Shown: positions 11,169 to 39,113 of the stretch, piece by piece
Position numbering within the stretch: the stretch's first letter is position 1
Layout: each line of letters opens with the position of its first letter
IMG/VR virus record: IMGVR_UViG_2563366830_000017
Location: 1-54,176 of that record
Source: a virus
Taxonomy: Duplodnaviria > Heunggongvirae > Uroviricota > Caudoviricetes
Reading direction: 5' to 3' (one strand)
Length of the DNA stretch: 54,176 bases
Notes under the pieces: model-generated
Databases searched by the model: none
Seen by the model: only the letters and a program-made list of their open reading frames with translations
What the model was told of the DNA's origin: nothing
Made by a program: the position numbers and the translations under genes

Positions 11169-12098
11169 ATGGCAAACACTGCTGAGATATTCAATTTTCC
11201 AGTGCCGGATGCGGCACAAAAGGAGCCGCGCGTGGCAGATCTCGATGATGGTTATACGCGCATTGCAAATGAGTTGCTGGAAGCTGTGATGCTGGCCGGA
11301 TTAACACAGCACCAGCTTCTGGTCTTCCTGGCTGTCATGCGCAAAACATATGGCTTTAATAAAAAACTGGATTGGGTGAGCAACGAGCAACTTTCCGAGT
11401 TGACCGGGATATTGCCGCACAAGTGTTCTGCTGCAAAAAGCGTTCTGGTAAAGCGTGGGATTCTTATTCAGAGCGGGCGGAATATCGGCATTAATAATGT
11501 GGTCAGTGAATGGTCAACATTCCCCGAATCAGGTAAGAAAAATAAAGTTTACCTGAAAGAGGTAAATTTACCTGAATCAGGTAAGAAAAGTTTACCCAAA
11601 TCAGGTAAAGGCGTTTACCCGAATCAGGTAAACACAAAAGACAAACTAACAAAAGACAATATAAAACCTTTTTCGTCCGAGAATTCTGGCGAATCCTCTG
11701 ACCAACCAGAAAACGATCTTCCTGTGGAGAAACCAGATGCTGCAATTCAGAGCGGCAGCAGGTGGGGGACAGCAGAAGACCTGACCGCCGCAGAGTGGAT
11801 GTTTGACATGGTGAAGACCATCGCGCCATCAGCCAGAAAACCGAATTTTGCAGGGTGGGCTAACGATATCCGCCTGATGCGTGAACGTGACGGACGTAAC
11901 CACCGCGACATGTGCGTGCTGTTCCGCTGGGCATGCCAGGACAACTTCTGGTCCGGTAACGTGCTAAGTCCGGCCAAACTCCGCGACAAGTGGACCCAAC
12001 TCGAAATCAACCGTAACAAGCAACAGGCTGGCGTGACAGCCGGAAAATCAAAACTCGACCTGACAAACACTGACTGGATTTATGGGGTGGATTTATGA
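11169..12098 (+). CDS. O: Replication initiator O (lambda O family)
   Basis: ATG with GGAGGA RBS; internal iterons; C-terminal region lambda-O-like; followed by P. Confidence 0.85.
   Translation: MANTAEIFNFPVPDAAQKEPRVADLDDGYTRIANELLEAVMLAGLTQHQLLVFLAVMRKTYGFNKKLDWVSNEQLSELTGILPHKCSAAKSVLVKRGILIQSGRNIGINNVVSEWSTFPESGKKNKVYLKEVNLPESGKKSLPKSGKGVYPNQVNTKDKLTKDNIKPFSSENSGESSDQPENDLPVEKPDAAIQSGSRWGTAEDLTAAEWMFDMVKTIAPSARKPNFAGWANDIRLMRERDGRNHRDMCVLFRWACQDNFWSGNVLSPAKLRDKWTQLEINRNKQQAGVTAGKSKLDLTNTDWIYGVDL
11520..11625. repeat. ori: Origin iterons inside O (four copies of GAATCAGGTAA-containing repeat)
   Basis: Direct repeats TCCCCGAATCAGGTAAGAAAA / TACCTGAATCAGGTAAGAAAAG / ACCCAAATCAGGTAAAGG / ACCCGAATCAGGTAAACAC read in sequence. 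Confidence 0.8.
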
Positions 12099-12796
12099 AA
12101 AACATCGCCGCACAGATGGTTAACTTTGACCGTGAGCAGATGCGCCGGATCGCCAACAACATGCCGGAACAGTACGACGAAAAGCCGCAGGTACAGCAGG
12201 TAGCGCGGATCATCAACGGTGTGTTCAGCCAGTTACTGGCAACTTTCCCGGCGAGCCTGGCTAACCGGGACCAGAACGAACTGAACGAAATCCGCCGCCA
12301 GTGGGTTCTGGCTTTCCGGGAAAACGGGATCACCACAATGGAACAGGTTAACGCAGGAATGCGCGTAGCCCGTCGGCAGAATCGACCATTCCTGCCATCA
12401 CCCGGGCAGTTTGTCGCCTGGTGCCGGGAAGAAGCATCCGTTACCGCCGGACTGCCAAACGCCAGCGAGCTGGTTGATATGGTTTACGAGTATTGCCGGA
12501 AGCGTGGCCTGTATCCGGACGCAGAGTCTTATCCATGGAAATCAAACGCGCACTACTGGTTGGTTACCAACCTGTACCAGAACATGCGGGCCAATGCGCT
12601 GACTGACGCGGAATTACGGCGTAAAGCTGCCGATGAGCTGACCTGTATGACCGCGCGAATTAACCGTGGTGAGGCGATACCTGAACCAGTAAAACAACTT
12701 CCTGTCATGGGCGGTAGGCCTCTAAATCGTGCACAGGCTCTGGCGAAGATCGCAGAAATCAAAGCGAAGTTCGGACTGAAAGGAGCAACTGTATGA
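12095..12796 (+). CDS. P: Replication protein P (DnaB helicase loader)
   Basis: 233-aa ORF MKNIAAQMVNFDREQMRRIANNMPEQYDEKPQVQQVA... matches lambda P. Confidence 0.97.
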   Translation: MKNIAAQMVNFDREQMRRIANNMPEQYDEKPQVQQVARIINGVFSQLLATFPASLANRDQNELNEIRRQWVLAFRENGITTMEQVNAGMRVARRQNRPFLPSPGQFVAWCREEASVTAGLPNASELVDMVYEYCRKRGLYPDAESYPWKSNAHYWLVTNLYQNMRANALTDAELRRKAADELTCMTARINRGEAIPEPVKQLPVMGGRPLNRAQALAKIAEIKAKFGLKGATV

Positions 12797-19571: not shown

Positions 19572-19865
19572 TTATTGTGAGCAATACACACGCGCTTCCA
19601 GCGGAGTATAAATGCCTAAAGTAATAAAACCGAGAAATCCATTTACGAATGTTTGCTGGGTTTCTGTTTTAACAACATTTTCTGCGCCGCCACAAATTTT
19701 GGCTGCATCAACAGTTTTCTCCTGTCCAATTCCCGAAACGAAGAAATGATGGGTGATGGTTTCCTTTGGTGTTACTGCTGTCGGTTTGTTTCCAACAGTA
19801 AACGTCTGTTGAGCACATCCTGTAATAAGCATTGCCAGAGCGGCAGAAAACAACATTTTTTTCAT
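19572..19865 (-). CDS. bor: Bor lipoprotein (serum-resistance family)
   Basis: MKKMLFSAALAMLITGCAQQTFTV... matches lambda Bor; start set at MKKM. Confidence 0.9.
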   Translation of the reverse strand: MKKMLFSAALAMLITGCAQQTFTVGNKPTAVTPKETITHHFFVSGIGQEKTVDAAKICGGAENVVKTETQQTFVNGFLGFITLGIYTPLEARVYCSQ

Positions 19866-20226
19866 CTTATTATCCTGCATTGTTAAAAACGGCAGAATCC
19901 TATGTGACAACAATTAAACGATAGTTAAATGGATTGATGAAAATTAAAACTATATAGGTGGATGCTCAGCCTATTGGAGGAGGGGGGGGCACTCAGAATC
20001 CTGTGGAATGAAATAAACCGCTCTATCTGTCCATTACCCTTTTAGCTGCGCTGTATCGTCGCCGTATTCCCGCATTAACCATGACCGTAGCCCGACGGGG
20101 AATTCCTTCTGCGTGAGTGTGCGGGAATAATCAAAAACGATGCACACCGGGTTTTACTGTGCTGACAGACGCAGGGTTACCCTCATAGTCGCTTTTCCGG
20201 TGCGATGGTGGAAGAAACCGGGATGT

Positions 20227-20421: not shown

Positions 20422-20590
20422 GAGGTTGCCCCGTATTCAGTGTCGCTGATTTGTATTGTCTGAAGTTGTTTTTACGTTAAGTTGATGCAGATCAATTAAT
20501 ACGATACCTGCGTCATAATTGATTATTTGACGTGGTTTGATGGCGTAGATGCACGTTGTGACATGTAGATGATAATTATTATCATTTTGC

Positions 20591-20800
20591 GGGTCCTTTC
20601 CGGCGATCCGACAGGTTACGGGGCGGCGACCTCGCGGGTTTTCGCTATTTATGAAAATTTTCCGGCTTAAGGCGTTTCCGTTCTTCTTCGCCGTAACTTC
20701 ATGTTTTTATTTAAAACACCCCCTAAAAAGAAAGGAAACGACAGGTGCTGAAAACGGGCTTTTTGGCCTCTGTCGTTTCCTTTCTCTGTTTTTGGCCGTG
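20591..20800 (+). other. cos: Prophage cos site (cosQ-cosN-cosB); cohesive-end sequence GGGCGGCGACCT at 20621..20632
   Basis: Sequence matches lambda cos as recalled; immediately upstream of Nu1. Confidence 0.9.
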
Positions 20801-26365: not shown

Positions 26366-26698
26366 ATGACGAGCAAAGAAACCTTTACCCATTACCAGCC
26401 GCTGGGCAACAGTGACCCGGCTCATACCGCAACCGCGCCCGGCGGATTGAGTGCGAAAGCGCCAGCAATGACCCCGCTGATGCTGGACACCTCCACCCGT
26501 AAGCTGGTTGCGTGGGATGGCACCACCGACGGTGCTGCCGTTGGCATTCTGGCGGTTGCTGCTGACCAGACCAGCACCACGCTGACGTTCTACAAGTCCG
26601 GCACGTTCCGTTATGAGGATGTGCTCTGGCCGGAGGCTGCCAGCGACGAGACGAAAAAACGGACCGCGTTTGCCGGAACGGCAATCAGCATCGTTTAA
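26366..26698 (+). CDS. D: Head decoration protein D
   Basis: 110 aa [27 protein letters not shown]... matches lambda gpD. Confidence 0.95.
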
Positions 26699-26753: not shown

Positions 26754-27029
26754 ATGTCGATGTACACAACCGCCCAGCTGCTGGCGGCAAATGAGCAGAA
26801 ATTTAAGTTTGATCCGCTGTTTCTGCGTCTCTTTTTCCGTGAGAGCTATCCCTTCACTACGGAGAAAGTCTATCTCTCACAAATTCCTGGACTGGTAAAC
26901 ATGGCGCTGTACGTTTCGCCGATTGTTTCCGGTGAGGTTATCCGTTCCCGTGGCGGCTCCACCTCTGAATTTACGCCGGGATATGTCAAACCCAAGCACT
27001 TAGCATGGCTTTCTGAGGCTTTCGTGTAG
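26754..27029 (+). pseudogene. E: Major capsid protein E, 5-prime fragment (82 lambda-like codons then 10 foreign codons and stop) created by insertion
   Basis: MSMYTTAQLLAANEQKFKFDPLFLRLFFRESYPFTT...GYVKPKH matches lambda E; then LAWLSEAFV-stop. Confidence 0.9.
26989..26998. repeat. Left copy of 10-bp direct repeat AACCCAAGCA at island junction
   Basis: Identical 10-mer at 38323..38332; lambda-like E sequence ends here. Confidence 0.75.
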
Positions 27030-27110
27030 TTGCTGGTTTTTACACTTAATCTTTTGATAATAAAGAATAAGTTTATCTGGCGCTTTCACTGAATTTTCCT
27101 CGTTATCTGT

Positions 27111-27146
27111 GTGTTGCAATCATCTCTGTATTGCAGCTTGTATTGC
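27111..27146 (+). repeat. Candidate integrase arm-type sites: three copies of TGT(A/G)TTGC(A) near left end
   Basis: GTGTTGCA, TGTATTGCA, TGTATTGC read in sequence; two more TGTATTGCA copies at 38227..38247. Confidence 0.45.
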
Positions 27147-27161
27147 TTTTTGGGGCTAAAA

Positions 27162-28397
27162 ATGGCTGGCGAGAACAAACTGAGCGACAAAGCGCTTAAA
27201 GGATATCTGGGGAAACCCAGAGAAAAGCAGATCACCATTGCTGATGGAAAGGGGCTTTCTATTCGTGTGAGTACTAAAGGGGCTGTGAGCTTTGTTTTCT
27301 TCTACAGGTTAGCAGGTGGCCGGGCTGCTCCGGTCTGGCTAACGTTGGGTAAATATCCTGATATGTCACTCAAACAGGCAAGGGAAAAGCGCGACGAGTG
27401 CCGTGGTTGGTTGGCTGACAAACGTGATCCGCGTATCCAGATTAAGATTCAGGCTGAAGAACGCTTAAAGCCGGTCACAGTGGAGGATGCACTAAATTAC
27501 TGGTATGAAAACTACTGTAAGGTGCGTCGTAAAACTCATGCTGTAACGCTTGGCAGATTTCGAAAGCATATCTTTCCCTATATCGGTCATTTGCCCGTAA
27601 ATGACACTCACCTATATGAATGGCTGGACTGTTTTGACCGAATTAAACGTAATGCACCAGTTATGGCGGCGTATGTTTTTTCTGACACTAAATTAGCTCT
27701 TCGTTTTTGTCGGGTACGCCAGTACGCGACGTGTGATGCTTTAAAGGATTTGCGCATGAGTGATGTGGGGCAGATTGCAGGTAAGCGGGATCGGGTTCTG
27801 GATGAAGCCGAACTCGGCCAGCTCTGGAAGGCAATTTTTGTCGAGCCTGATTTAAAACTAATGTCTGAATACACGCGAAAAATGTTTGTGCTTTGTACAG
27901 TATTTGGATGTCGAATGAGTGAAGCCCGATTATCAGAATGGAGCGAATGGGATCTCGAAAGTTGGGTTTGGACTGTGCCAAAAGATCACTCAAAAACTGG
28001 TGTTGAAATCGTCAGACCAGTACCTGAAATTCTACGACAGTGGGTAACGGATGTTCACGAAGAGACAAAACATACTGGTTATGTGCTGGGAAGTCTGCGA
28101 ATTAGAGAAAGCGTAAGCAAGATTGGGGGGAAAATCGGTAAACGTTTGGGCCATGAAAAACAATGGTCACTACACGACCTTAGAAGAACGCTATCTACTC
28201 ATCTAAGTGATCTCGGTGTTGAATTTTATGTAGTAGAACAACTGTTAGGCCATGCGCTACCTGGCGTGGCAGGTGTTTACAACCGGAGTAAGTTTATGGC
28301 TAAAAAACTGGATGCTCTGGAACTCTGGACTACATATCTCAATAGCATCGCAGCTGCTGATTCAAAAGTGACAATCCTCAAACAAAAGGCTGGTTAG
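27162..28397 (+). CDS. Tyrosine integrase, P4-type (island-encoded)
   Basis: 411 aa from ATG; C-terminal HxLRxT...HxxxxxxxxY-like catalytic region (HELR...HDLRRT...LGHA...VY); adjacent to left junction. Confidence 0.85.
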   Translation: MAGENKLSDKALKGYLGKPREKQITIADGKGLSIRVSTKGAVSFVFFYRLAGGRAAPVWLTLGKYPDMSLKQAREKRDECRGWLADKRDPRIQIKIQAEERLKPVTVEDALNYWYENYCKVRRKTHAVTLGRFRKHIFPYIGHLPVNDTHLYEWLDCFDRIKRNAPVMAAYVFSDTKLALRFCRVRQYATCDALKDLRMSDVGQIAGKRDRVLDEAELGQLWKAIFVEPDLKLMSEYTRKMFVLCTVFGCRMSEARLSEWSEWDLESWVWTVPKDHSKTGVEIVRPVPEILRQWVTDVHEETKHTGYVLGSLRIRESVSKIGGKIGKRLGHEKQWSLHDLRRTLSTHLSDLGVEFYVVEQLLGHALPGVAGVYNRSKFMAKKLDALELWTTYLNSIAAADSKVTILKQKAG

Positions 28398-28398
28398 C

Positions 28399-28629
28399 AT
28401 GAAAAAAATGGCAATTGTTGATAAAAAGGGTCTGGAGTACATTCCTAACATTGACCGAATGATCCGTGAGAAAGAATGTCGGGAGCTAACTACTCTTGCG
28501 AACAGCACACGCTGGAAGCTGGAGAAGGAAGGAAAATTTCCTAAGCGGATCAAGATTGGTTCCACTGCTGTTGCATATCGTCTTTCAGAAGTGCAGGCAT
28601 GGATTCGAGGTGAGTGGGAAACAACTTAA
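28399..28629 (+). CDS. AlpA-family HTH regulator/excisionase-like protein
   Basis: 76 aa; placed immediately after integrase as in P4-like and PICI elements. Confidence 0.7.
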   Translation: MKKMAIVDKKGLEYIPNIDRMIREKECRELTTLANSTRWKLEKEGKFPKRIKIGSTAVAYRLSEVQAWIRGEWETT

Positions 28630-28636
28630 CTATTAG

Positions 28637-29467
28637 GTGGGCATTGTGGCTATATTTCATTATACAGATCTTTTTGGTTTGAAAGGTATATTAGACTCTA
28701 ATTCTTTATGGGCTACAAACATATATTTCTTAAATGATAAAGAGGAGTCTAACCATGGATGTGAATGCTTTCGAAATACAATTAAAATAGTTGATGACAA
28801 TATCATTCCAAAAGATAAGAAAACTATTTTGCTCAAGTCTCTTGACATGTATGAGAAAGGGAGGTTACAAAAAGAAAAAGGGATTGATAAACATGTTTAT
28901 AGCATCTCTTTTTGTAAGGAAAACGATAAGTTAAGTCAGTGGAGAGGTTACGGAAATAAACAGGGTGTTTGCATTGAGTTTGATGCGGATGAACTTGTGA
29001 GCTTTTCTCAAAATATTTATTTAAATTGTGTTGCACATGATGTTATATATTCAAATAATAACGATATTACTAAGATGAGTAAGGAGTTGGGAGAGTTTTT
29101 TTCTTGTAATGGTATTAACATTAAAGAAATGAATGATCATTTTGTAACAATGGTCTCTACGTATCAATTTATATCTAAATACATCCCATTTTTTAAACAT
29201 CCTAGTTTTATCGAAGAGAATGAATTTAGATTGGTATTTACTCCGTGGATGCAAATGCCAGATGTGCACTTCAGAATAAATAATAATGGAATCATCCCTT
29301 ATATCATCATTGATAATAAAGATAATAGAAAGTTACCAATTAAAAGCATTACAATTGGCCCGACAAACGATTATGATTTCATTGAGGCTGGTATAAAAAT
29401 GTTCTTGGATTCAAGAGGATTTAGTTCTGTGGAAATTAAATCCTCATCAATTCCATTCAGGGGGTAA
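28637..29467 (+). CDS. DUF2971-like protein (AT-rich cargo gene)
   Basis: N-terminal FHYTDLFGLKGILDSNSLWATNIYFLNDKEE resembles the DUF2971 signature as I recall it; GTG start; low GC. Confidence 0.55.
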   Translation: MGIVAIFHYTDLFGLKGILDSNSLWATNIYFLNDKEESNHGCECFRNTIKIVDDNIIPKDKKTILLKSLDMYEKGRLQKEKGIDKHVYSISFCKENDKLSQWRGYGNKQGVCIEFDADELVSFSQNIYLNCVAHDVIYSNNNDITKMSKELGEFFSCNGINIKEMNDHFVTMVSTYQFISKYIPFFKHPSFIEENEFRLVFTPWMQMPDVHFRINNNGIIPYIIIDNKDNRKLPIKSITIGPTNDYDFIEAGIKMFLDSRGFSSVEIKSSSIPFRG

Positions 29468-29598
29468 GGATTAACACTTTTAATCTGTGATATTATAAAA
29501 ATGGTGGATAAAGGCGACCAGAATTGGTCGCCAATGTGAGTATATAGTTAGCCTTAATCAGAATACGAGGTTATCGCCTGATAGGCAATGTGAACAGT

Positions 29599-29955
29599 TC
29601 AATATTTAGGTGGTTCAACAAGAGCGTTTATCATTGCTCTCAAATTATCGCGAACACTTATCCAAGTCTGTTCTGCTCGTTCTAACTCATCAGTGTACAA
29701 CTTTAATGTTTTATCTATGCCATATGTGGCTATTAAATTTATAGCTTCTTGTAATTTTTCAGGATTATTCCTTCTTGGGGGAGTGAATATACCACGGATT
29801 TTTCCGGTAATTAAAGCTTTACGGTGTCTACATAGAATACCTTTACTTCCTGCTGGACAATTACAAGTCATGATTAGCGAGCCAGAATCGTTTGATACAG
29901 TGACTATGTATACATCCAAACTACTGCTACTTGTTGCGAAGAATTCGTATTTCAT
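29599..29955 (-). CDS. SWIM-type zinc-finger protein (CxCx8CxH), AT-rich cargo gene
   Basis: Motif CNCPAGSKGILCRH seen in translation; convergent with DUF2971-like gene. Confidence 0.5.
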   Translation of the reverse strand: MKYEFFATSSSSLDVYIVTVSNDSGSLIMTCNCPAGSKGILCRHRKALITGKIRGIFTPPRRNNPEKLQEAINLIATYGIDKTLKLYTDELERAEQTWISVRDNLRAMINALVEPPKY

Positions 29956-29982
29956 GTGTTAGCTCCTTGACTTCAATTATTC

Positions 29983-30114
29983 TTATCCTTTTGGTTCAAT
30001 ACCGCGCCGTAGCAGCTCTTTGCGCCCTAATTCTTTAAGCCAGTTGGCTAGGCTTATGCCGTCGCTCTGCGCTTCTTTGTCGAATTGCTCTTTTAGCTCT
30101 GGAGAAATTCGCAT
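29983..30114 (-). CDS. Small basic protein, possible ribbon-helix-helix repressor (43 aa from ATG)
   Basis: MRISPELKEQFDKEAQSDGISLANWLKELGRKELLRRGIEPKG; divergent from downstream plus-strand operon. Confidence 0.4.
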   Translation of the reverse strand: MRISPELKEQFDKEAQSDGISLANWLKELGRKELLRRGIEPKG

Positions 30115-30313
30115 TCTGAATTGTGGAGATTGCCCATCACCCTTAGGACTTTTATCGCGTTTGATCGTTGACAAGTGACCACCTATTGAATTAGCCTTTT
30201 CATTGTTAGGTGGCCACCTTAACACGGGGGCACTTAAAAAAGCAAAGCCCGAAGGTGCTGGGAACACCAACGGGCTTCTAACCACCAACGATAGCAACAG
30301 TATCGAGGTAGCT

Positions 30314-30517
30314 ATGAGAAATCATACCACACACCCGCAAGGGCGGGACCCGCACAACCTGAATAAATACATCTGGCGTTTTATCGCCTTGAGTACGGCA
30401 CAACCGCGCATGATTACCATCGAGGCCATCAGCGAACAGGAAGCCCGCCAGCAATCCCCAACTGGCTGCGTGATGGTATTCGCCGCCCGTATTCGTCAGG
30501 AGGTGTGCCGTGCTTAA
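30314..30517 (+). CDS. Hypothetical small protein, first gene of island early operon
   Basis: ORF track 30203..30517; ATG at 30314 chosen. Confidence 0.4.
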   Translation: MRNHTTHPQGRDPHNLNKYIWRFIALSTAQPRMITIEAISEQEARQQSPTGCVMVFAARIRQEVCRA

Positions 30518-30695
30518 AACCTTCCGTGTATTTGCCCGAGCTGTTAACCCACTGGGCCACACAATTGGTATCACTCAGAACGTGAAGGCTGTTAATGTTC
30601 AGACGGCTATTGCTGCGGTGAGAAGCGAATCATCAGAATATGGCTTATCACAAGTCATTATTTCAGCAGTGTATGAATTAAAAGAGGTGCATTAA
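30510..30695 (+). CDS. Hypothetical small protein
   Basis: 61-aa ORF, overlapping starts/stops in operon. Confidence 0.45.
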   Translation: MLKTFRVFARAVNPLGHTIGITQNVKAVNVQTAIAAVRSESSEYGLSQVIISAVYELKEVH

Positions 30696-30886
30696 TGCAG
30701 GAAATCACATTACACGAAGCCGCTGAACGTGCGCACCAGACAGAAATTATTTGCCGCCTTCTTGAGGTATACCCGAACAAAATTACAGATGCTGATATAT
30801 CCGCGCTGGCGAGCCTACTGGCGCGCCTTTCGGGAAGTGTCGCTAGTTTCCTGATTGAGGAAGAAAGTAAGCTGGTGGGGGATTAA
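30695..30886 (+). CDS. Hypothetical small protein
   Basis: 63-aa ORF, translationally coupled in operon. Confidence 0.45.
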   Translation: MQEITLHEAAERAHQTEIICRLLEVYPNKITDADISALASLLARLSGSVASFLIEEESKLVGD

Positions 30887-31108
30887 ATGAATACAGAACG
30901 GGAAGTCTTTTTTAAATTGTTAGCATGTGCAGAAAGTCCATTAACTTTAAATAATTCAGCAAAAGCAATATTAAATATGTGGCTTGATTGCATAAATGAC
31001 AATGAAGATGCAAATATTGCTTATGGCCTGTTGTCACTTATTGATGAATCAGCAGAAAAACTCAATGACGCAATAAATAGTGCCCTGCTATCAAATAAGT
31101 CGAGTTAA
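30887..31108 (+). CDS. Hypothetical small protein
   Basis: 73-aa ORF in operon. Confidence 0.45.
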   Translation: MNTEREVFFKLLACAESPLTLNNSAKAILNMWLDCINDNEDANIAYGLLSLIDESAEKLNDAINSALLSNKSS

Positions 31109-31125
31109 GTCGAGGAATAAATAAT

Positions 31126-31425
31126 ATGGAAATGAAAAATTCTGGCTTTATTGCCAGCGGCCCCGCTCGGCCTGAATTTATGAACGGCGATATTTACCGC
31201 GATAAATACGGCGGCACGGTAACGATTAAAGGCGTGGCAGAACGGCGCATCACTTACCGCCGTGAGGGGTATAGCTATGACTGCGTGATGCCTGTTTATC
31301 AGTTCCGGCGTGATTTTTCCCTGGTATATGCCGCACCCCGCAGTAAGCCCATCAGCAGGGAAAAAGCGCGGGGAAACATCCAGAAAATGAAAAGCATGAT
31401 TAACGCATTCAGGGGCAAAAAATGA
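31126..31425 (+). CDS. Hypothetical protein (99 aa)
   Basis: ORF immediately upstream of and overlapping primase start. Confidence 0.5.
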   Translation: MEMKNSGFIASGPARPEFMNGDIYRDKYGGTVTIKGVAERRITYRREGYSYDCVMPVYQFRRDFSLVYAAPRSKPISREKARGNIQKMKSMINAFRGKK

Positions 31426-33173
31426 AACTGGCACCGAACTTAAAAAAACAGCCACGCGACAGACTGACAGAGGTAATCATCTTTGCAGGTAGTGATGCGT
31501 GGAGCCATGCGAAAGAGTGGCGGGAATGGGCGGGTAAACATATTGCCGCCGACGATGTGCCGCCTGTCGTGCTGGCTGATGAGCAACTGAAAAATATCAC
31601 CGATTACCGGATCATTGATGAAGATCGTCAGTGTGTGCGTGTTTACCGCGCAGGACATATCACAGAGCACAGCATGACGCAGATTGTTACGTTACTGGCT
31701 GTGGCTGGAGTGAAGACCGTACACGAATACGCGGGGATTACTGACACCAGCCCAGTGGATTTATCCGAGCAGTTGCCGCGACTCAAAGAGGAATGCGAGC
31801 GTGGGGAAAGTCTGGTGCTTAATCTTCCGACGAAGCAAAAGGCGCAACTTTCACAGATGGCAGACAGTGAACGTGCACAACTACTTGCCGATCGCTTTGA
31901 TGGTGTGTGTGTTCATGCAGAAAGTGAAATCGTCCACGTATGGCGCGGCGGGGTATGGTGTCCGGTCAGCACAATGGAGCTGAGCCGCGAAATGGTGGCG
32001 ATCTATTCAGAGCACAGGGCCACGTTCAGCAAACGTGTAATCAATAACGCCGTGGAAGCGTTAAAAGTTATTGCCGACCCCATGGGGGAGCCGTCCGGTG
32101 ATTTGCTACCGTTCACTAATGGTGTGCTTAACCTGAAAACGGGGGAATTTTCTCCGCACTCGCCGGAGCACTGGAGCACCACGCACAATGGCATTGAGTA
32201 CACGCCACCAGTAGCAGGGGAAAACATCCGCGATAATGCGCCAAATTTCCATAAATGGCTTGAACATGCCGCAAGAAAAGACCCGCGCAAGATGATGCGT
32301 ATATGTGCCGCGTTATACATGATTATGGCGAACCGCTACGACTGGCAGATGTTCATTGAGGCCACCGGAGACGGGGGAAGCGGTAAGAGTACATTTACCC
32401 ATATTGCCACCCTGCTTGCTGGCAAACAGAACACCGTAAGCGCGGAGATGACATCACTCGATGATGCAGGAGGGCGCGCGCAGGTTGTCGGGAGTCGTCT
32501 TATCGTCCTTGCCGATCAGCCGAAATATACGGGGGAAGGCACGGGCATCAAGAAAATCACGGGAGGCGATCCCGTTGAAATTAACCCGAAATATGAGAAG
32601 CGATTCACGACGATAATAAGGGCGGTGGTACTGGCAACCAATAACGACCCGATGATCTTTACCGAACGGGCCGGAGGTGTGTCACGCCGTCGGGTGATTT
32701 TCCGGTTCGACAACATTGTAAGGGAGGACGAAAAAGACAAGGAATTACCGGAAAAGATAGCGGCAGAAATCCCCGTAATTATCCGCCGCTTGCTGGCTAA
32801 TTTTGCTGACCCTGAAAAGGCACGGGCTTTATTACTGGAACAGCGTGACGGTGATGAAGCTCTGGCAATAAAGCAGCAAACGGATCCGGTTGTTGAGCTT
32901 TGCGCGGCGCTGGAGTTTCTGGAGGAAGCTCGTGGGCTAATGATGGGCGGTGGTGGTGACACCGTGAAGTACACGACCAGAAACAGCCTTTACCGTGTCT
33001 ATATGGCCTTCATGGCATACACAGGAAAGGGGAAATGTTTGAGCGTGAATGAGTTCGGAAAGGCTATGAGGTCAGCGGCGAAAGTTTACGGATATGAATA
33101 TATTACGCGAAAAGTTAAGGGAGTCACGCAGACCAACGCAACGACTACTGATGATTGCGATGCGTTTTTATAA
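31422..33173 (+). CDS. Primase/replication protein (P4-alpha C-terminal-like, with Walker A GDGGSGKST)
   Basis: 583 aa; P-loop GDGGSGKS seen; followed by iteron array. Confidence 0.8.
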   Translation: MKLAPNLKKQPRDRLTEVIIFAGSDAWSHAKEWREWAGKHIAADDVPPVVLADEQLKNITDYRIIDEDRQCVRVYRAGHITEHSMTQIVTLLAVAGVKTVHEYAGITDTSPVDLSEQLPRLKEECERGESLVLNLPTKQKAQLSQMADSERAQLLADRFDGVCVHAESEIVHVWRGGVWCPVSTMELSREMVAIYSEHRATFSKRVINNAVEALKVIADPMGEPSGDLLPFTNGVLNLKTGEFSPHSPEHWSTTHNGIEYTPPVAGENIRDNAPNFHKWLEHAARKDPRKMMRICAALYMIMANRYDWQMFIEATGDGGSGKSTFTHIATLLAGKQNTVSAEMTSLDDAGGRAQVVGSRLIVLADQPKYTGEGTGIKKITGGDPVEINPKYEKRFTTIIRAVVLATNNDPMIFTERAGGVSRRRVIFRFDNIVREDEKDKELPEKIAAEIPVIIRRLLANFADPEKARALLLEQRDGDEALAIKQQTDPVVELCAALEFLEEARGLMMGGGGDTVKYTTRNSLYRVYMAFMAYTGKGKCLSVNEFGKAMRSAAKVYGYEYITRKVKGVTQTNATTTDDCDAFL

Positions 33174-33179
33174 AAAATG

Positions 33180-33430
33180 GCAATGGTTATCTACCTTGTC
33201 TACCTGACTGAAAGAAAATACTTTTATTTCAATGTATTAATGCAGGTAGATAACTATTTTTCACTGTCTACCTGTTATCTACCTTATCTACCCATTTTTG
33301 TAGACAGGTAAGGAGACGGGTAGAGATGAGGTAGACAGCTATTTGGGGCTGTCTACCTCCCTGAAACCCGCGCCATTACTGGCCTGATAACTAATCAGGT
33401 AGACAAGGTAGACAAGGTGGTGGTGCACAA
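33180..33430. repeat. ori: Island replication-origin iterons (GGTAGACA / TGTCTACC family, both orientations)
   Basis: At least 10 copies of (A)GGTAGAC(A) or its complement within 250 bp directly after primase gene. Confidence 0.75.
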
Positions 33431-33462
33431 AAAACTTTTTAAACGAGGGGGTAAAAATAAAA

Positions 33463-33720
33463 ATGCACACATCAGGAAAACTGAACAAACATATAAAGCC
33501 ACATTACCGCGCCCTTGATATGGCTGAACACTGGCTAAGGGTGGCGATTAAGGCAATAGACCGCAACGCCGGGGAAGGATACGCGAAAGCACATCCCGAA
33601 CTGATAAGCGCATTCATGACAACGGCGGCTGCAAACTTTGCCACGCTGACCGAACGGGAGATTGCTGAAGCGGAGGAAGTGACAACAATCAATATTAAGT
33701 CCGGAGAGCAGGCAGCATGA
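33463..33720 (+). CDS. Hypothetical protein (85 aa)
   Basis: ORF overlapping ssb start. Confidence 0.45.
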   Translation: MHTSGKLNKHIKPHYRALDMAEHWLRVAIKAIDRNAGEGYAKAHPELISAFMTTAAANFATLTEREIAEAEEVTTINIKSGEQAA

Positions 33721-34166
33721 CGGCGCAAATATCAGTTTACGGGCGGTTGGTGGACGACCCGCAGACAAAACAGACCAGCAAGGGCACCCCCATGACGCTG
33801 GCGCGTATGGCGGTATCACTGCCCTGCAGTCAGTCGGATGACGGTCTGGCGACGTTGTGGTTATCTGTCCTGGCGTTTGGCAGACAAGCCGACGCGCTGG
33901 CAAAGCATCACAAAGGCGAACTCCTGAGCGTGGCGGGTAACATGCAGATGAGCCAGTGGACTGGACAGAACGGCGAAACGCGGCAGGGCTGGCAGGTTAT
34001 CGCAGACAGCGTAATCAGTGCGCGATCGGTGCGACCGGGCGGCAAAAAAGGCCAACAGGGGCAGGCTACTGACGCACTGAACAGAGCAAAACAACAGGCA
34101 GATCAGCAAGGAAGCCAGCCACCAGAGGGAGATAATGAGCAATGGGGAGATGATATCCCGTTTTAA
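33717..34166 (+). CDS. ssb: Single-stranded DNA-binding protein
   Basis: OB-fold-like N-region, Gln/Gly-rich linker and acidic C-terminal tail ending DDIPF. Confidence 0.85.
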   Translation: MTAQISVYGRLVDDPQTKQTSKGTPMTLARMAVSLPCSQSDDGLATLWLSVLAFGRQADALAKHHKGELLSVAGNMQMSQWTGQNGETRQGWQVIADSVISARSVRPGGKKGQQGQATDALNRAKQQADQQGSQPPEGDNEQWGDDIPF

Positions 34167-34382
34167 ATATTGCCAATAAAAAAAGCCGGAAAAAATAAAT
34201 TTTCCGGCATGCTACATAAATCCCGACCAAAGGGAGTGAAGATATTAACACTAATTGTCCGCACTGAAGTTGTCACCCCAAAACTTTATACAACATTGCA
34301 CTCGGTTGCATGTGTTCGCATGACAAATATCGGTGATAGCATATATCCACAATTATTTTTAATGAATGCAAAGAGGATGCGT

Positions 34383-35423
34383 ATGGTTGATTTATATTCG
34401 CCTACTCAGCTTGTACAGGTAGTTAATGCTGTAGATGTACAAAAACAACTAAATGCGTTATTTACCAGTTTGTTTTTTACTCGCTCGGTAATGTTTGAAT
34501 CGCGCGATATTATTCTTGATACAATCGACGATCCAAATATCCCAATTGCAGCGTTTTGTTCTCCTATGGTGGGTAGTAAAGTTTCACGTGACGAAGGGTA
34601 CGAATCAAAAACAATTCGTCCAGGCTATATGAAGCCGAAAAGCAGCATTGATCCAAATAAGTTAGCTGTGCGCCCTGCTGGTGTGTCACCTGAGCAATAC
34701 AATGCTTTTGGGGCGCGTAATATTAAAGTTAAACAGGCGATTGTAAATCAGGCTAAAGCTATTCGTGCACGTATTGAATGGCTTGCTGTTCAGGCAATCA
34801 CAACGGGGAAAAATATCATTGAGGGCGATGGTATTGAACGTTATGAGCTGGACTGGAATATAAAACCACAAAATATCATCACTCAGTCTGGCGGTACTGA
34901 GTGGTCAGGTAAGGATAAAGAAACTTTTGATCCAAATGATGATATTGAGAGCTACGCAGAATTTAGTGAGGGCGTCACTAATATCATCATTATGGGTGGT
35001 AATGTATGGAAGAAATACCGTTCATTCAGAGCGATAAAAGAGGCTTTGGATACCCGTCGTGGTTCTAATTCCGAACTGGAAACGGCCCTTAAAGACCTTG
35101 GTGATTCGGTGAGTTTTAAAGGGTATATGGGCGATGTTGCGATTGTTGTTTACAGCGGGCGTTATACCGACGAGGACGGAACAGAAAAACATTTCCTTGA
35201 TCCTGATTTGATGGTGCTTGGCAATACGGCTCTTCAGGGGATTGTCGCCTATGGCGGTATTCAGGATCCGGAGCTAATCCGAATGGGGCTGACTAAAGCC
35301 GAACTTGCACCGAAAAACTATATTGTGCCTGGTGATCCGGCTATTGAATATGTGCAGACACATTCAGCACCACAGCCAATACCGGCCCGCATCAATCGTT
35401 TTGTTACCGTTCGCATTGGCTAA
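34383..35423 (+). CDS. Island-encoded major capsid protein, diverged homolog of lambda E
   Basis: Blocks shared with prophage E: NIITQSGGTEWSGKDKETFDPNDDIESYA, LDTRRGSNSELETALKDLG, YMGDVAIVVYSGRY, MVLGNT; ORF track 34170 start is upstream. Confidence 0.85.
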   Translation: MVDLYSPTQLVQVVNAVDVQKQLNALFTSLFFTRSVMFESRDIILDTIDDPNIPIAAFCSPMVGSKVSRDEGYESKTIRPGYMKPKSSIDPNKLAVRPAGVSPEQYNAFGARNIKVKQAIVNQAKAIRARIEWLAVQAITTGKNIIEGDGIERYELDWNIKPQNIITQSGGTEWSGKDKETFDPNDDIESYAEFSEGVTNIIIMGGNVWKKYRSFRAIKEALDTRRGSNSELETALKDLGDSVSFKGYMGDVAIVVYSGRYTDEDGTEKHFLDPDLMVLGNTALQGIVAYGGIQDPELIRMGLTKAELAPKNYIVPGDPAIEYVQTHSAPQPIPARINRFVTVRIG

Positions 35424-35432
35424 GGGGGAGCA

Positions 35433-35774
35433 ATGGCTACTCATTACACTGAACTCATGGCTGGCACTGAAGCACTGGTGACTACGCTGGGGATATTTTC
35501 AGCTAATAAAGGGGTAATTCCTGCATTTACGCCACTGATGCAGGAAGATGCAACAGGTGCACTGGTGGTATGGGATGGTTCGAGCGTAGGTAAAGCGGTT
35601 TATGTTTCCGCTGTACAAATCGACACCGCGAAAAAAACACAGGCTCAGGTCTATAAGACAGGTGTCTTAAATGTTGATGCTCTGAACTGGCCTGAGTCTG
35701 TTAAAGAACTGTCAGTAAAGATTGCAGCGTTTGTTGGCTCAGGTATTTCTGTTCAGCCGCTGGCTCGTGTGTAA
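35433..35774 (+). CDS. Island-encoded decoration protein, diverged homolog of lambda D
   Basis: THYTEL, FTPLMQEDATGALVVWDGSSVGKAV, YKTGVLNVDALNWPE, AAFVGSGISV align with prophage D motifs. Confidence 0.8.
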   Translation: MATHYTELMAGTEALVTTLGIFSANKGVIPAFTPLMQEDATGALVVWDGSSVGKAVYVSAVQIDTAKKTQAQVYKTGVLNVDALNWPESVKELSVKIAAFVGSGISVQPLARV

Positions 35775-35785
35775 AGGGGGATACA

Positions 35786-36169
35786 ATGCAGAATGATTAC
35801 AATGACCTTAAGCCAATTGCCGAAATGATGTACCCGAATCCAGCTGTAGAGGAATTAAAAGCTATCGCTGACAAAATGTGTTTAAGCGAGCGCCTTGTTG
35901 ATATGAATCAGGTGATGGAAATTACAACCCTGAGTCGTCGTACACTGCTAAACCTTGAGGCTAGTGGAGAGTTCCCGGAGCGTGTGCAGGTTACGGAAGG
36001 GCGTAAGGCCTGGTATTTAAGTGAAGTGATCGACTGGATAAATAATATTCCTCGCGCTTCTGAATATTGCCGCGTACCTGTCCCAAAAAAGCCAGATGCG
36101 GCGCTATGCCTCAAGATTGAGCGTGTACGCCGCAATGCACGGGATGGTCGCTATAAGCTGATTGGTTGA
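35786..36169 (+). CDS. HTH protein (AlpA/MerR-like C-terminal half) immediately upstream of island cos
   Basis: 127 aa; segment MNQVMEITTLSRRTLLNLEASGEFPERVQVTEGRKAWYLSEVIDWI looks like AlpA-type HTH. Confidence 0.55.
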   Translation: MQNDYNDLKPIAEMMYPNPAVEELKAIADKMCLSERLVDMNQVMEITTLSRRTLLNLEASGEFPERVQVTEGRKAWYLSEVIDWINNIPRASEYCRVPVPKKPDAALCLKIERVRRNARDGRYKLIG

Positions 36170-36194
36170 TGAAATTAGGGCCCGCTCTGGCTGG

Positions 36195-36400
36195 CGGGTC
36201 CTTTCCGGTGATCCAGAACGTTACGGGGCGTCAGGCGCGCAGATTCTTGCTATTTATGACAATTTTCTGCGATTTGCCGTTTCCGTTCTTCTTCCTTGTA
36301 ACTTATTGTTTTTACTAGAAATACCCTCTAAAAAGAAAGGAAATGACAGGTGCTGAAAACAGGCTTTTGGGTCTCCGTCATTTCCTTTCTCATTTTTATC
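36195..36400 (+). other. cos: Island cos-like site, same orientation as prophage cos
   Basis: GGGTCCTTTCCGGTGATCC...ACGTTACGGGGCG...CGCG...GCTATTTATGA...AAAAAGAAAGGAAATGACAGGTGCTGAAAAC aligns block-by-block with 20591..20800. Confidence 0.8.
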
Positions 36401-36652
36401 TAAAAGTAAGCATCGAGGCCACCCCAAATGCTTATAGAGGTTATTGTGTCACTATGCGTACTGTTCAGGATTTAAAGTAGCAAGACATCTAGTTGCTTGC
36501 AGTTTTGGCGAATGATGTGAGGTTCTCTATAACAGATAATGTAACAAGTTACTGATATATTCTGTTATGGTTGACTTTAAATTTTGTTGCTCCTTCAATG
36601 AATTATTGAGGGGTAAAAATTAGGCGTGATAAGAATCGATCACGCCTATTGT

Positions 36653-37969
36653 TTATCTTGAAGAAATTTTAGGCAGGCTTTTTAAAAATAAATCTTTATT
36701 TCTACTTGCATCAGTTAAAAGTGTTAGGAATATTTTATCTGTAGGAGTGCATGTGCTCTTGTTTAACAGTAATTCACCAAGTTTCTGTAATCGAGAGAAT
36801 TGCCCATCCTCTTGGATTCTGTGACGAAGTGTACTATCATTTTTAATAACATCAACAAATGCAGAAACCATATTAATATCAAAGTGTTCAAACATTTCCA
36901 ATATTAAAGGTGCAGCCCCATTTGAATAAAAATTCTTCCTTCCATACTGATAGCTGAAACCACGATGGCCAACATAAGTTTTTGTAATGGCTGAAACAAA
37001 TTCAACAATATTATCTTCAGGGACGAAACTCGAGAATGGTAATAATTGGGTTACGATTTTTTCCTCTTCTGACCAATTATCTAAAGACTCGGTGAGTTTA
37101 TTAATGAGAGGCTCAATAATAACTTTTCGGGATGCAGGGCTAATATACATCAGTCCATCTACCAATAGTATGAATTGTTGTGCCTTCTCTATCTTATTGT
37201 TGTTTCCTGAAACTAAATACTTGTCAAATTGTTGGCCGACTTTACGTCGGTCGTCTTTTGAAAGTAATGTCCATAAAATAGGTGCGCAAAATTCAATGTT
37301 GTTTCTGAGTTCACTTGATATATTGGATGAGCAGTATGTGCCAAAAAAACGAGAGGATAATTCACTGATATAAATTGCAGGTAGATCTGAAAAGGCTTGC
37401 TTAACTGCCAGACTATTTTTATTAAATGTTGCCGAATCCATTTCTGAAAGATATGTAGTTATATCTATGATGGCTGGTGGAAACTCTTTAGAAAGAACGT
37501 ATTTATTACAATCATTAATCAGGTTCACTACTTTGATTAAATCAGGGTCGCTACTTTGTGGATGTCCACCAAATAGATTCCTGGTTTCTCTAGCTTGTTG
37601 TAATAGTTTCTGACCTTCTCGATCGATAACTCCTATTTTAAATGCTCCATCTATTAAATCAAAGTCGCTCACATAATCCTGAAAATCTTCATACGTTTTA
37701 ATTTCTTTTTTTTGTTTACACTCTTTGTTGAATAGATCTAGGCTACGATGAATTATCTTTTGACGTAAATCATCAACTACAGCATTCCAGTAAGCAGTGA
37801 TGGCACTTCTATAACCTTTTACAGGAAGAACTCTTATTGCTTCTGAAATATATGGGCAGTCAACTACATCATGCCTCACAGTTGAGAGCGCAGTTTGTAA
37901 CAATGTAACTTCTGTAGAGTCTAGTGGAGTTGGCTGCACTAAATGAGAACTTATCTCTGTACCCTTCAT
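36653..37969 (-). CDS. Hypothetical 438-aa protein, AT-rich cargo gene between island cos and right junction
   Basis: Low GC; contains R-x5-H motif (RNLFGGH); no family confidently assigned. Confidence 0.6.
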   Translation of the reverse strand: MKGTEISSHLVQPTPLDSTEVTLLQTALSTVRHDVVDCPYISEAIRVLPVKGYRSAITAYWNAVVDDLRQKIIHRSLDLFNKECKQKKEIKTYEDFQDYVSDFDLIDGAFKIGVIDREGQKLLQQARETRNLFGGHPQSSDPDLIKVVNLINDCNKYVLSKEFPPAIIDITTYLSEMDSATFNKNSLAVKQAFSDLPAIYISELSSRFFGTYCSSNISSELRNNIEFCAPILWTLLSKDDRRKVGQQFDKYLVSGNNNKIEKAQQFILLVDGLMYISPASRKVIIEPLINKLTESLDNWSEEEKIVTQLLPFSSFVPEDNIVEFVSAITKTYVGHRGFSYQYGRKNFYSNGAAPLILEMFEHFDINMVSAFVDVIKNDSTLRHRIQEDGQFSRLQKLGELLLNKSTCTPTDKIFLTLLTDASRNKDLFLKSLPKISSR

Positions 37970-38322
37970 TTCAGGATTTTCCTATTCTTTTCCATTTTTC
38001 TACTCTATTGAATTTGAAAAAGATATCAAGTTCGTTCTTGCCAGTTTTAAGTGGAAAATTTGATGTTACCTTATTGAGATAAGGCAGTTCTCTATAACCT
38101 ATTGTTATTAATTATTTTTATTTTTTTCCAATTCAGATGTTTAGGGCTAAGAAGTTAAGTGAGAGTTCACAGCAAAACTGCTTCTAGTTCCTCACCGAGG
38201 AGCAAAAGGTTAAGACAGCGTACTTTGTATTGCACAATGTATTGCAGAACCTTCTTTCGAAAGCTACAACAATCAATTTTATATTGAAAATTCAATCATA
38301 TCCTTTCGATATTGACTCATAT

Positions 38323-38332
38323 AACCCAAGCA
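38323..38332. repeat. Right copy of 10-bp direct repeat AACCCAAGCA at island junction
   Basis: Identical to 26989..26998; lambda-like E sequence resumes here. Confidence 0.75.
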
Positions 38333-39113
38333 TGAAGTGAATCCGCAGATGACCCTGCGTCGCCTGCCGGATGAAGATCCGCAGAATCTGGCGGACCCGG
38401 CTTACCGTCGCCGTCGCATCATCATGCAGAACATGCGTGACGAAGAGCTGGCCATTGCCCAGGTGGAAGAGATGCAGGCAGTTTCTGCCGTGCTTAAGGG
38501 CAAATACACCATGACCGGTGAAGCCTTCGATCCGGTTGAGGTGGATATGGGCCGCAGTGCGGCCAACAACATCACGCAGTCCGGCGGCACGGTGTGGAGC
38601 AAGCGTGACAAGTCCACGTATGACCCGACCGACGATATCGAAGTCTACGCGCTGAACGCCAGCGGCGTGGTGAATATCATCGTGTTTGATCCGAAAGGCT
38701 GGGCGCTGTTCCGTTCCTTCAAGGCCGTCAGGGAGAAGCTGGATACCCGTCGCGGCTCTCATTCCGAGCTGGAGACAGCGGTAAAAGACCTGGGCAAAGC
38801 GGTGTCTTATAAGGGAATGTATGGCGATGTGGCCATCGTCGTGTATTCCGGACAGTACGTGGAAAACGGCGTCAAAAAGAACTTCCTGCCGGACAACACG
38901 ATGGTGCTGGGTAACACTCATGCACGCGGTCTGCGCACCTATGGCTGCATTCAGGATGCGGATGCATTGAGTGAGGGTATTAATGCGTCTCCCCGTTATC
39001 CGAAAAACTGGAAGACATCCGGCGATCCGGCGCGTGAGTTCACCATGATTCAGTCAGCACCGCTGATGCTGCTGGCTGACCCTGATGAGTTCGTTTCCGT
39101 ACAACTGGCGTAA
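38323..39113 (+). pseudogene. E: Major capsid protein E, 3-prime fragment (codons ~80-341)
   Basis: PKHEVNPQMTLRRLPDEDPQNLADPAYRRRRIIMQNM...EFVSVQLA matches lambda E C-terminal 260 aa. Confidence 0.9.

Follow-up and report, generated by a model that had tools for sequence, protein, structure and literature searches.

Satellites that bring capsid genes of their own have been described in two settings close to the present one. In the phage-inducible chromosomal island (PICI) EcCICFT073, Fillol-Salom et al. 2018 named a ‘putative capsid protein (c1499)’ and a ‘head decoration protein (c1500)’ (PMC6092414), while Tommasini, Mageeney & Williams 2023 described ‘11capE’ (Eco567.11capE), an 11-kb PICI of E. 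coli NRG857c bounded by a 10-bp attL/attR block, and reported 201 instances at the E:Phage_cap_E_80 site and 491 helper-embedded PICIs (HE-PICIs) overall (PMC10111431). On induction of the 11capE system the composite of helper and satellite excises and replicates, and the satellite then excises (PMC10111431). Here we analysed IMG/VR virus record IMGVR_UViG_2563366830_000017 (Caudoviricetes; positions 1 to 54,176, this whole 54,176-nt stretch being referred to as the window), a lambda-like prophage adjoining ybhC, the lambda attB region, whose capsid gene E is split by an ~ 11-kb phage satellite. The satellite itself encodes a diverged E-like major capsid protein (E') and a diverged D-like head decoration protein (D'). 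Both the nested satellite with its own capsid gene (2023, PMC10111431) and E/D homologues in Gram-negative PICIs (2018, PMC6092414) had already been published; new here are the satellite-only lineage of the two genes, their reversed order, their low guanine-cytosine (GC) content, the purifying selection acting on them and their adjacency to a helper-like cos site. A search for later literature on HE-PICIs, or on what the capsid and decoration genes of PICIs do, found none.

The island measured 11,334 bp and interrupted the helper E gene after codon His83. It was bounded by a 10-bp direct repeat, AACCCAAGCA, present as the attL identity block at 26989–26998 (+ strand, within helper E codons 80–83) and as the attR identity block at 38323–38332 (+ strand), the same 10-mer that flanks 11capE in NRG857c. 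The left junction read ...GTCAAACCCAAGCAC|TTAGC and the right junction ...TATAACCCAAGCAT|GAAGTG. Codons 1–83 of helper E lie at 26754–26998 (+) in a frame running nine more codons into the island to a stop at 27029, and codons 84–341 lie at 38333–39113 (+); rejoined at the 10-bp core, the two fragments give a protein of 341 aa, 96.5% identical to lambda E. As long as the island is embedded, the helper late transcript should give a truncated E (window 26754–27029) of 83 native and nine island-encoded residues (LAWLSEAFV), the native part comprising the N-arm and the next N-terminal residues. Helper late genes and island genes were on the + strand, so that the island is co-oriented with the helper late operon.

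The element is already known, as a mosaic variant of the published HE-PICI 11capE. Against the NRG857c locus, E' was identical at 345/346 residues, D' at 113/113, the AlpA-like protein encoded after D' at 127/127 and the integrase at 409/411, with the same att 10-mer at both junctions; insertion site, co-orientation, att block with restoration of E, and integrase clade were all those of the E:Phage_cap_E_80 HE-PICIs. Both elements are inserted at the same point of E, run in the direction of the late genes and are ~ 11 kb long (11,334 here vs 11,077 bp). They differ in the primase (49% identical; window 31422–33173 vs L012:13229–15049), in the genes of the Icd/Bro zone and in cargo, which here consists of a DUF2971 gene, a SWIM gene and a 438-aa open reading frame (ORF), in contrast to HEPN and DUF262 genes in 11capE. 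The helpers also sit at different places: at ybhC in the window, at icd in NRG857c (L012) and in a Qin-like prophage in strain XSLGL-2 (L011). Because the integrase and late modules are 99.5–100% identical to those of 11capE and the primase just 49%, the satellite is a mosaic built from exchangeable modules.

This island type was found in ~ 395 of 5,426 complete E. coli genomes (~ 7%). Twenty-nine complete E. coli genomes carried at least 80% of the present island, and at least 60 carried its backbone at 97–99.9% identity, each of the latter with an annotated fragment of the helper capsid gene beside the island's own capsid gene.

E' is encoded at 34383–35423 (+ strand, 346 aa). The first-pass annotation of the window, made from the sequence without database searches, had begun this gene at 34377; that codon is indeed an in-frame ATG, but the likely start lies two codons on, at ATG 34383, which has GAGGA 5 nt upstream and is the start used by RefSeq in identical islands. 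E' matched Pfam Phage_cap_E (PF03864) over residues 12–343 of 346 (E = 1.1e-41; 143 bits vs a gathering cut-off of 22.9) and belongs to the lambda-E family. In global alignment, 143 of 338 positions (42.3%) were identical to the rejoined prophage E (z = 125 against shuffles), and identity to reference lambda E (NC_001416) was 43.5%. Among PDB sequences the best match was 3BQW (E = 2.7e-121), the crystal structure of c1499, and lambda gpE 7VI9 also matched (E = 4.7e-77). The AlphaFold2 model (predicted local distance difference test score, pLDDT, 83) superposed on 3BQW with a template modelling (TM) score of 0.94 and on lambda gpE 7SJ5 with 0.90; on this model, E' is predicted to have the complete HK97 fold, with no domain added or missing relative to lambda gpE. 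Divergence from helper E was uneven, the N-arm, E-loop and spine helix being 15–35% identical and the C-terminal core 50–75%. Per-site constraint profiles of the satellite clade and of phage E proteins were correlated (rho = 0.49), with the exception of the first ~ 33 residues, which were less conserved in satellites than in phages. Together with the purifying selection on the gene, this phage-like profile lends indirect support to a putative assembly of E' into an icosahedral shell.

D' (35433–35774, + strand, 113 aa) is a member of the gpD/SHP family, with a match to Pfam HDPD (PF02924; E = 4.4e-15; 56.3 bits vs a gathering cut-off of 29.1) and, among PDB sequences, to phage 21 SHP 1TD0 (E = 6e-16) and lambda gpD 1C5E (E = 1e-11). 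It was identical to prophage D at 40 of 104 positions (38.5%, z = 24 against shuffles in global alignment) and to reference lambda D (NC_001416) at 36.5%; the prophage D itself (26366–26698, + strand, 110 aa) was 98.2% identical to lambda D. In the alignment, the N-terminus of D' was also unlike that of helper D. In lambda, one gpE subunit contributes its E-loop, and the next gpE its N-arm, to a four-stranded sheet that includes the N-terminus of gpD (PMC5701804). Since the N-arm and E-loop of E' and the N-terminus of D' have all diverged, the contact elements of shell and cement have diverged together, which fits a matched pair.

These results bear out most of what the first-pass annotation had described. 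Both Pfam and alignment confirm its central observation, that the inserted satellite encodes its own diverged E-like and D-like genes, and every block it had quoted was present: ITQSGGT.WS, DP.DDIE.YA, LDTRRGS.SELETA.KDLG, GDVAIVVYSG, MVLGNT and GDPA.E for E, and TPLM, WDG, YK.G, WPE and AF.G..IS for D. The comparison with lambda E that it had proposed, by alignment and structure prediction, gave the TM score of 0.90 to gpE and the diverged N-arm, E-loop and spine helix; it had named a lack of profile similarity as a possible counter-finding, and both families scored above their gathering cut-offs. Its estimate of ‘roughly half identical’ was slightly too high, the real values being 42% and 38.5%, although the genes are clearly diverged, as it had said. 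It had also held that they are not recent duplicates, and a recent duplication or capture from the resident helper is ruled out by these identities, by a GC content 10–15 points lower and by the reversed gene order.

Between window 34383–35774 and L004:8996–10387, a PICI at the cspD/clpS site, E' was 84% identical (synonymous divergence, dS, 1.26) and D' 94% identical (dS 0.27). A recombination breakpoint must therefore exist between the two genes, and consequently a single D' type is able to serve E' proteins that differ by 16%. Two further database proteins, P0005 (463 aa) and P0080 (470 aa), carried Phage_cap_E and HDPD in one polypeptide; these apparent E-D fusions may be read-through or frameshift assembly artefacts, or real fusions.

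To place the pair, E' and D' were compared with 50,697 phage records and E' was searched against 5.8 billion proteins. The best phage match was 42.3% identical for E' (lambda itself) and 40% for D', so that no close phage donor was found among the 50,697 records. Homologues of E' in the wider search fell into two groups, one running from 99% down to 52% identity (Escherichia, Salmonella, Cedecea, Scandinavium, Serratia, Edwardsiella, Lelliottia) and one of phage type at ~ 42%. A neighbour-joining tree separated satellite and phage E clades (lowest identity within satellites 49%, highest between clades 47%), the satellite clade being as deep as the phage clade. Seven genomic contexts were inspected, in Escherichia, Serratia, Edwardsiella and Lelliottia; all seven were satellites of the layout integrase, AlpA, replication gene (primase or helicase), E', D', with both reading frames intact. 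They occupied chromosomal sites (abgR/smrA, cspD/clpS, roxA/phoQ, fis) or lay within prophage genes. By these sequence comparisons, E' and D' represent a lineage of Enterobacterales satellites that is absent from sequenced phages.

The order E then D was likewise found in all seven satellites (window 34383–35774; L003, L004, L006, L007, L008, L009), against D then E in lambda, the window's helper, the CFT073 prophage and the Edwardsiella helper. GC content was 43% for E' and 47% for D', compared with 55% and 60% for helper E and D. At unsaturated distances, the ratio of nonsynonymous to synonymous divergence (dN/dS) was 0.04–0.08 for E' and ~ 0.10 for D', vs 0.21–0.28 for phage genes, values which indicate strong purifying selection on both, at least as strict as on the phage genes. 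E' and D' are an intact, selected and matched pair belonging to satellites. Compared with lambda gpE and gpD (7VI9, 7SJ5, 1C5E) and phage 21 SHP (1TD0), they share Pfam families, fold (TM 0.90) and the conserved C-terminal core blocks, and differ in their 36–44% identity, reversed order, GC content lower by 10–15 points and strongly diverged N-arm, E-loop and spine helix. In a Lelliottia PICI (L009:10001–12752) the order was E, D, S49 protease, the full reverse of the phage order C-D-E.

Downstream of D', and directly after the AlpA-like gene that follows it, lies a satellite cos site (36194–36397, + strand) with a cosQ-like element, the left half of cosN and cosB boxes resembling R3, R2 and R1. 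A search for exact lambda cosN found none within two mismatches inside the island; alignment then revealed the diverged but clear cos, 80% identical over 204 bp to the prophage cos at 20589–20792, with a 12-nt cohesive end of GGGCGTCAGGCG compared with GGGCGGCGACCT in the helper. Relatives L002–L004 carry a Nu1-like ‘terminase small subunit’ gene after cos, whereas this island has the 438-aa ORF there instead and no Rpp/TerS-like gene. This arrangement suggests that the island would be packaged by the helper's own Nu1-A terminase without redirection, unlike EcCICFT073, which in sequence comparison keeps the cosQ/cosN part alone and which lacks cosB and uses Rpp (PMC6739421). Four island copies amount to 45.3 kb (4 × 11.3), or 93.5% of the lambda genome, a length that agrees with the packaging of concatemers into full-size heads reported for EcCICFT073.

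EcCICFT073 was located in the CFT073 genome, with its capsid and decoration genes in the same order and context; c1499 was 54% identical to E' and c1500 55% to D'. The two islands share membership of the satellite E/D clade, PICI architecture and the order SSB ... E' - D' - small gene - cos. They differ in that EcCICFT073 occupies a chromosomal site (roxA/phoQ), lacks a phage-type cosB and uses Rpp, while the present island keeps lambda-like cosB boxes. All DNA packaged by EcCICFT073 was phage-sized, so that small capsids had not been made, and transfer was sensitive to island size (PMC6092414).

Because E' and D' are under strong purifying selection, form a satellite-only lineage and sit next to cos, they must have a function. 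Our preferred reading, which we would put at about even odds (probability roughly 0.5), is that, with the AlpA-like gene and cos, they form the late zone of an 11capE-type HE-PICI and provide an accessory supply of capsid protein, or a helper-range function, which is redundant in the laboratory and is exercised in helper-sized heads. E' and D' would be made late, together with the packaging region; while the island is still embedded, the helper's antiterminated late transcript, with which it is co-oriented, would also read through into them. The satellite would excise after induction and the helper regain E, as in 11capE (PMC10111431), while E' and D' would be built into T=7 shells of helper size, or assemble next to such shells, with portal, protease and scaffold supplied by the helper. 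Since the E N-arm, E-loop and D N-terminus have all diverged from the helper's, D' would be the protein that cements E', and the resulting heads would take about four cos-to-cos island copies. On this account, E' and D' would be neither a size-redirection device nor a permanent replacement of helper E. The narrower proposition that these PICIs actually travel in heads built by the pair, with portal, protease and scaffold taken from the helper, we consider unlikely. If it were true, a large group of Enterobacterales PICIs would be intermediate between classical capsid-stealing and capsid-forming PICIs, and the null phenotype in EcCICFT073 would reflect redundancy with helper E and D, not an absent function.

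Several points weigh against a capsid role of this kind. Deletion of c1499 or c1500 left both island transfer and lambda interference of EcCICFT073 unchanged (PMC6092414), which makes any contribution of E' and D' to capsids putative and unproven, although at 54–55% identity the EcCICFT073 results may not transfer either way. The 11capE/50icd pair yielded no recoverable virions (PMC10111431). Compatibility with the helper scaffold and portal is uncertain at 42% identity to helper E overall and 15–35% in the N-terminal half, and the N-arm shows weaker conservation in satellites than it does in phages. Finally, no sigma-70 promoter was found on the + strand upstream of E'.

The mechanism put forward in the first-pass annotation was that the island builds its own, possibly smaller, capsids on the helper's portal and packaging machinery; in a reading as size redirection, E' with D' would form small shells that fit one 11.3-kb satellite genome and exclude the helper genome. 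There is precedent in Ccm of SaPIbov5, another cos-packaged satellite encoding a homologue of its helper's HK97-fold capsid protein, whose capsid homologue does redirect size, and in PmCI172, a Pasteurella PICI that encodes a capsid homologue and makes small heads (PMC6092414). The island is also about a quarter of the helper's size, E' has diverged most in its N-terminal half (N-arm, E-loop, spine helix), and it is just 54% identical to the tested c1499. Ccm, however, belongs to another major capsid protein family and has no decoration partner, and in the nearest tested E. coli PICI, EcCICFT073, a search for Ccm-type activity and for small capsids specific to the island was negative: with a homologous cassette (54–55% identical) this PICI packages phage-sized DNA alone, the genes are dispensable, and deletion of c1499/c1500 leaves interference in place (PMC6092414). 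Four island copies fill a lambda head almost exactly, and the predicted E' fold superposes on full-size lambda gpE (TM 0.90) without domain change. Size redirection by E' appears distinctly improbable on this evidence; the descriptive part of that annotation was right, but its mechanism is unlikely in our assessment, being unsupported by published work. The annotation had further proposed that the insertion inactivates helper E. The gene is indeed split when the island is integrated, but reversibly: the rejoined E is a 341-aa protein, and precise excision of 11capE reached 42–98% by 2–3 h after induction, restoring E (PMC10111431). Because 11capE excises precisely and the att sites, integrase and AlpA of the window are intact, the helper is not permanently E-minus. 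This bears on the possibility that E' (with D') replaces the interrupted helper E, so that heads could be made before or without excision, an idea raised by Tommasini et al. (PMC10111431). Helper E was split in every copy inspected (at least 60 genomes), and the co-orientation of the island means that helper late transcription should enter it. Efficient excision of the satellite, as seen for 11capE (PMC10111431), argues against such a need, as does the unexcised composite, whose length exceeds what can be packaged (the window alone contains > 52 kb of prophage and island sequence). The same cassette occurs, moreover, in chromosomal-site PICIs that interrupt nothing phage-related, and in an Edwardsiella tarda lambdoid prophage a related satellite splits the portal gene (L008:765–1625, 11908–12681) yet carries E' and D' and no portal gene, its E' being 46% identical to the E of its own helper. 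Owing to these two settings, the E'-D' cassette is not a device tied to the knockout of E, and a replacement role is quite unlikely.

An interference function, in which E' and/or D' would co-assemble or compete with phage E and D and so poison the heads of the helper or of invading lambdoid phages, strikes us as quite unlikely too. Helpers are commonly hampered by their satellites, diverged contact elements around a conserved core are what a poison subunit would need, and in EcCICFT073 such an effect could be masked by Rpp, the dominant interference factor (PMC6739421). Deletion of c1499 or c1500 nevertheless did not restore lambda plaquing (PMC6092414), and a poison could do without a matched decoration protein, whereas D' is itself kept under purifying selection. 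That helper late genes were once captured and the pair is now a decaying remnant without function would agree with the absence of a phenotype in EcCICFT073 (PMC6092414) and with the capture of late-gene clusters by PICIs (PMC10111431). A dN/dS of 0.04–0.10 comes close to refuting it, however, and the frames intact in 7/7 contexts over several genera, a satellite clade as deep as the phage clade and the want of a close phage donor among the 50,697 records point the same way, making decay by far the least credible explanation. Between these alternatives, an accessory capsid supply or helper-range function in helper-sized heads remains the reading we prefer.

The puzzle is a general one, in that strong selection maintains an intact capsid/decoration pair in hundreds of Gram-negative PICIs, although its deletion has given no phenotype in the laboratory. 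Its answer would show whether these satellites merely steal heads or help to build them, and bears on helper range, on gene transfer among Enterobacterales and on how PICI-based delivery particles might be designed. Capsid-forming PICIs (cf-PICIs), which encode their own capsid proteins, were reportedly described by Alqurainy et al. 2023; cf-PICIs carry a complete head and packaging module, with portal, protease, connectors and terminase. The present island differs from them in having shell and cement proteins alone: as the first-pass annotation had noted, no portal, protease/scaffold or terminase ORF was found within 26989–38332 by ORF inspection and Pfam. The Lelliottia relative with an added S49 protease is a partial step toward a cf-PICI.

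The remaining gene content of the island was that of Gram-negative PICIs (int, alpA and pri, a mostly unidirectional layout, a length of 11.3 kb within the 10–20 kb range, and no lysis or tail genes). In order, it encodes the integrase, AlpA, the DUF2971 and SWIM cargo, an Icd-like gene, several small genes, DUF4222, the D5_N/DUF5906 primase, a small ORF, SSB, E', D', the second AlpA-like protein, cos and the 438-aa ORF. The tyrosine integrase (27162–28397, +, 411 aa) carried Pfam Arm-DNA-bind_3 and Phage_integrase domains, and the AlpA of the integration zone (28399–28629, +, 76 aa; Phage_AlpA E = 3e-15) is a candidate excisionase or activator. The primase/helicase (31422–33173, +, 583 aa) matched D5_N, DUF5906 and Pox_D5, and SSB (33717–34166, +, 149 aa; Pfam SSB E = 2.1e-15) is followed by a hairpin at 34185–34208. 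The AlpA-like helix-turn-helix gene directly after D' (35786–36169, +, 127 aa; Phage_AlpA E = 7.6e-09) kept its position in relatives L003, L004 and L007. No Rfam family, including the C4/isrK immunity RNAs known from some PICIs, matched the island at E ≤ 0.1.

Self-integration of the island into its own E' is unlikely, the homologous stretch there being GAAGCCGAAAAGCAGC and not AACCCAAGCA; Tommasini et al. 2023 made the same remark (PMC10111431).

Two cargo hot spots of low GC (33–39%) were apparent in the window, at 28646–29955, with the DUF2971 gene and the SWIM zinc-finger gene, and at 36653–37969, with the 438-aa ORF on the minus strand, for which there was no Pfam match. PADLOC, run on E', D' and the cargo ORFs, returned nothing for E', D' or the 438-aa ORF, and gave weak candidate-family matches alone for DUF2971 and SWIM (PDC-S31, PDC-S62). 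The same positions hold HEPN and DUF262 in 11capE (L012), TerS-like and DUF2971 genes in L002 and a TIR-domain protein in strain XJ6.1, and these hot-spot genes are probably swappable anti-phage defence cargo. The helper prophage has its cos (cosN at 20621), Nu1, A, portal, S49 protease and D genes ahead of the split E. Its integrase lies on the minus strand at 1419–2489, the window's 1–2489 end being the one that adjoins ybhC, and a Bor/Iss-type lipoprotein gene (19572–19913) stands between its lysis genes and cos.

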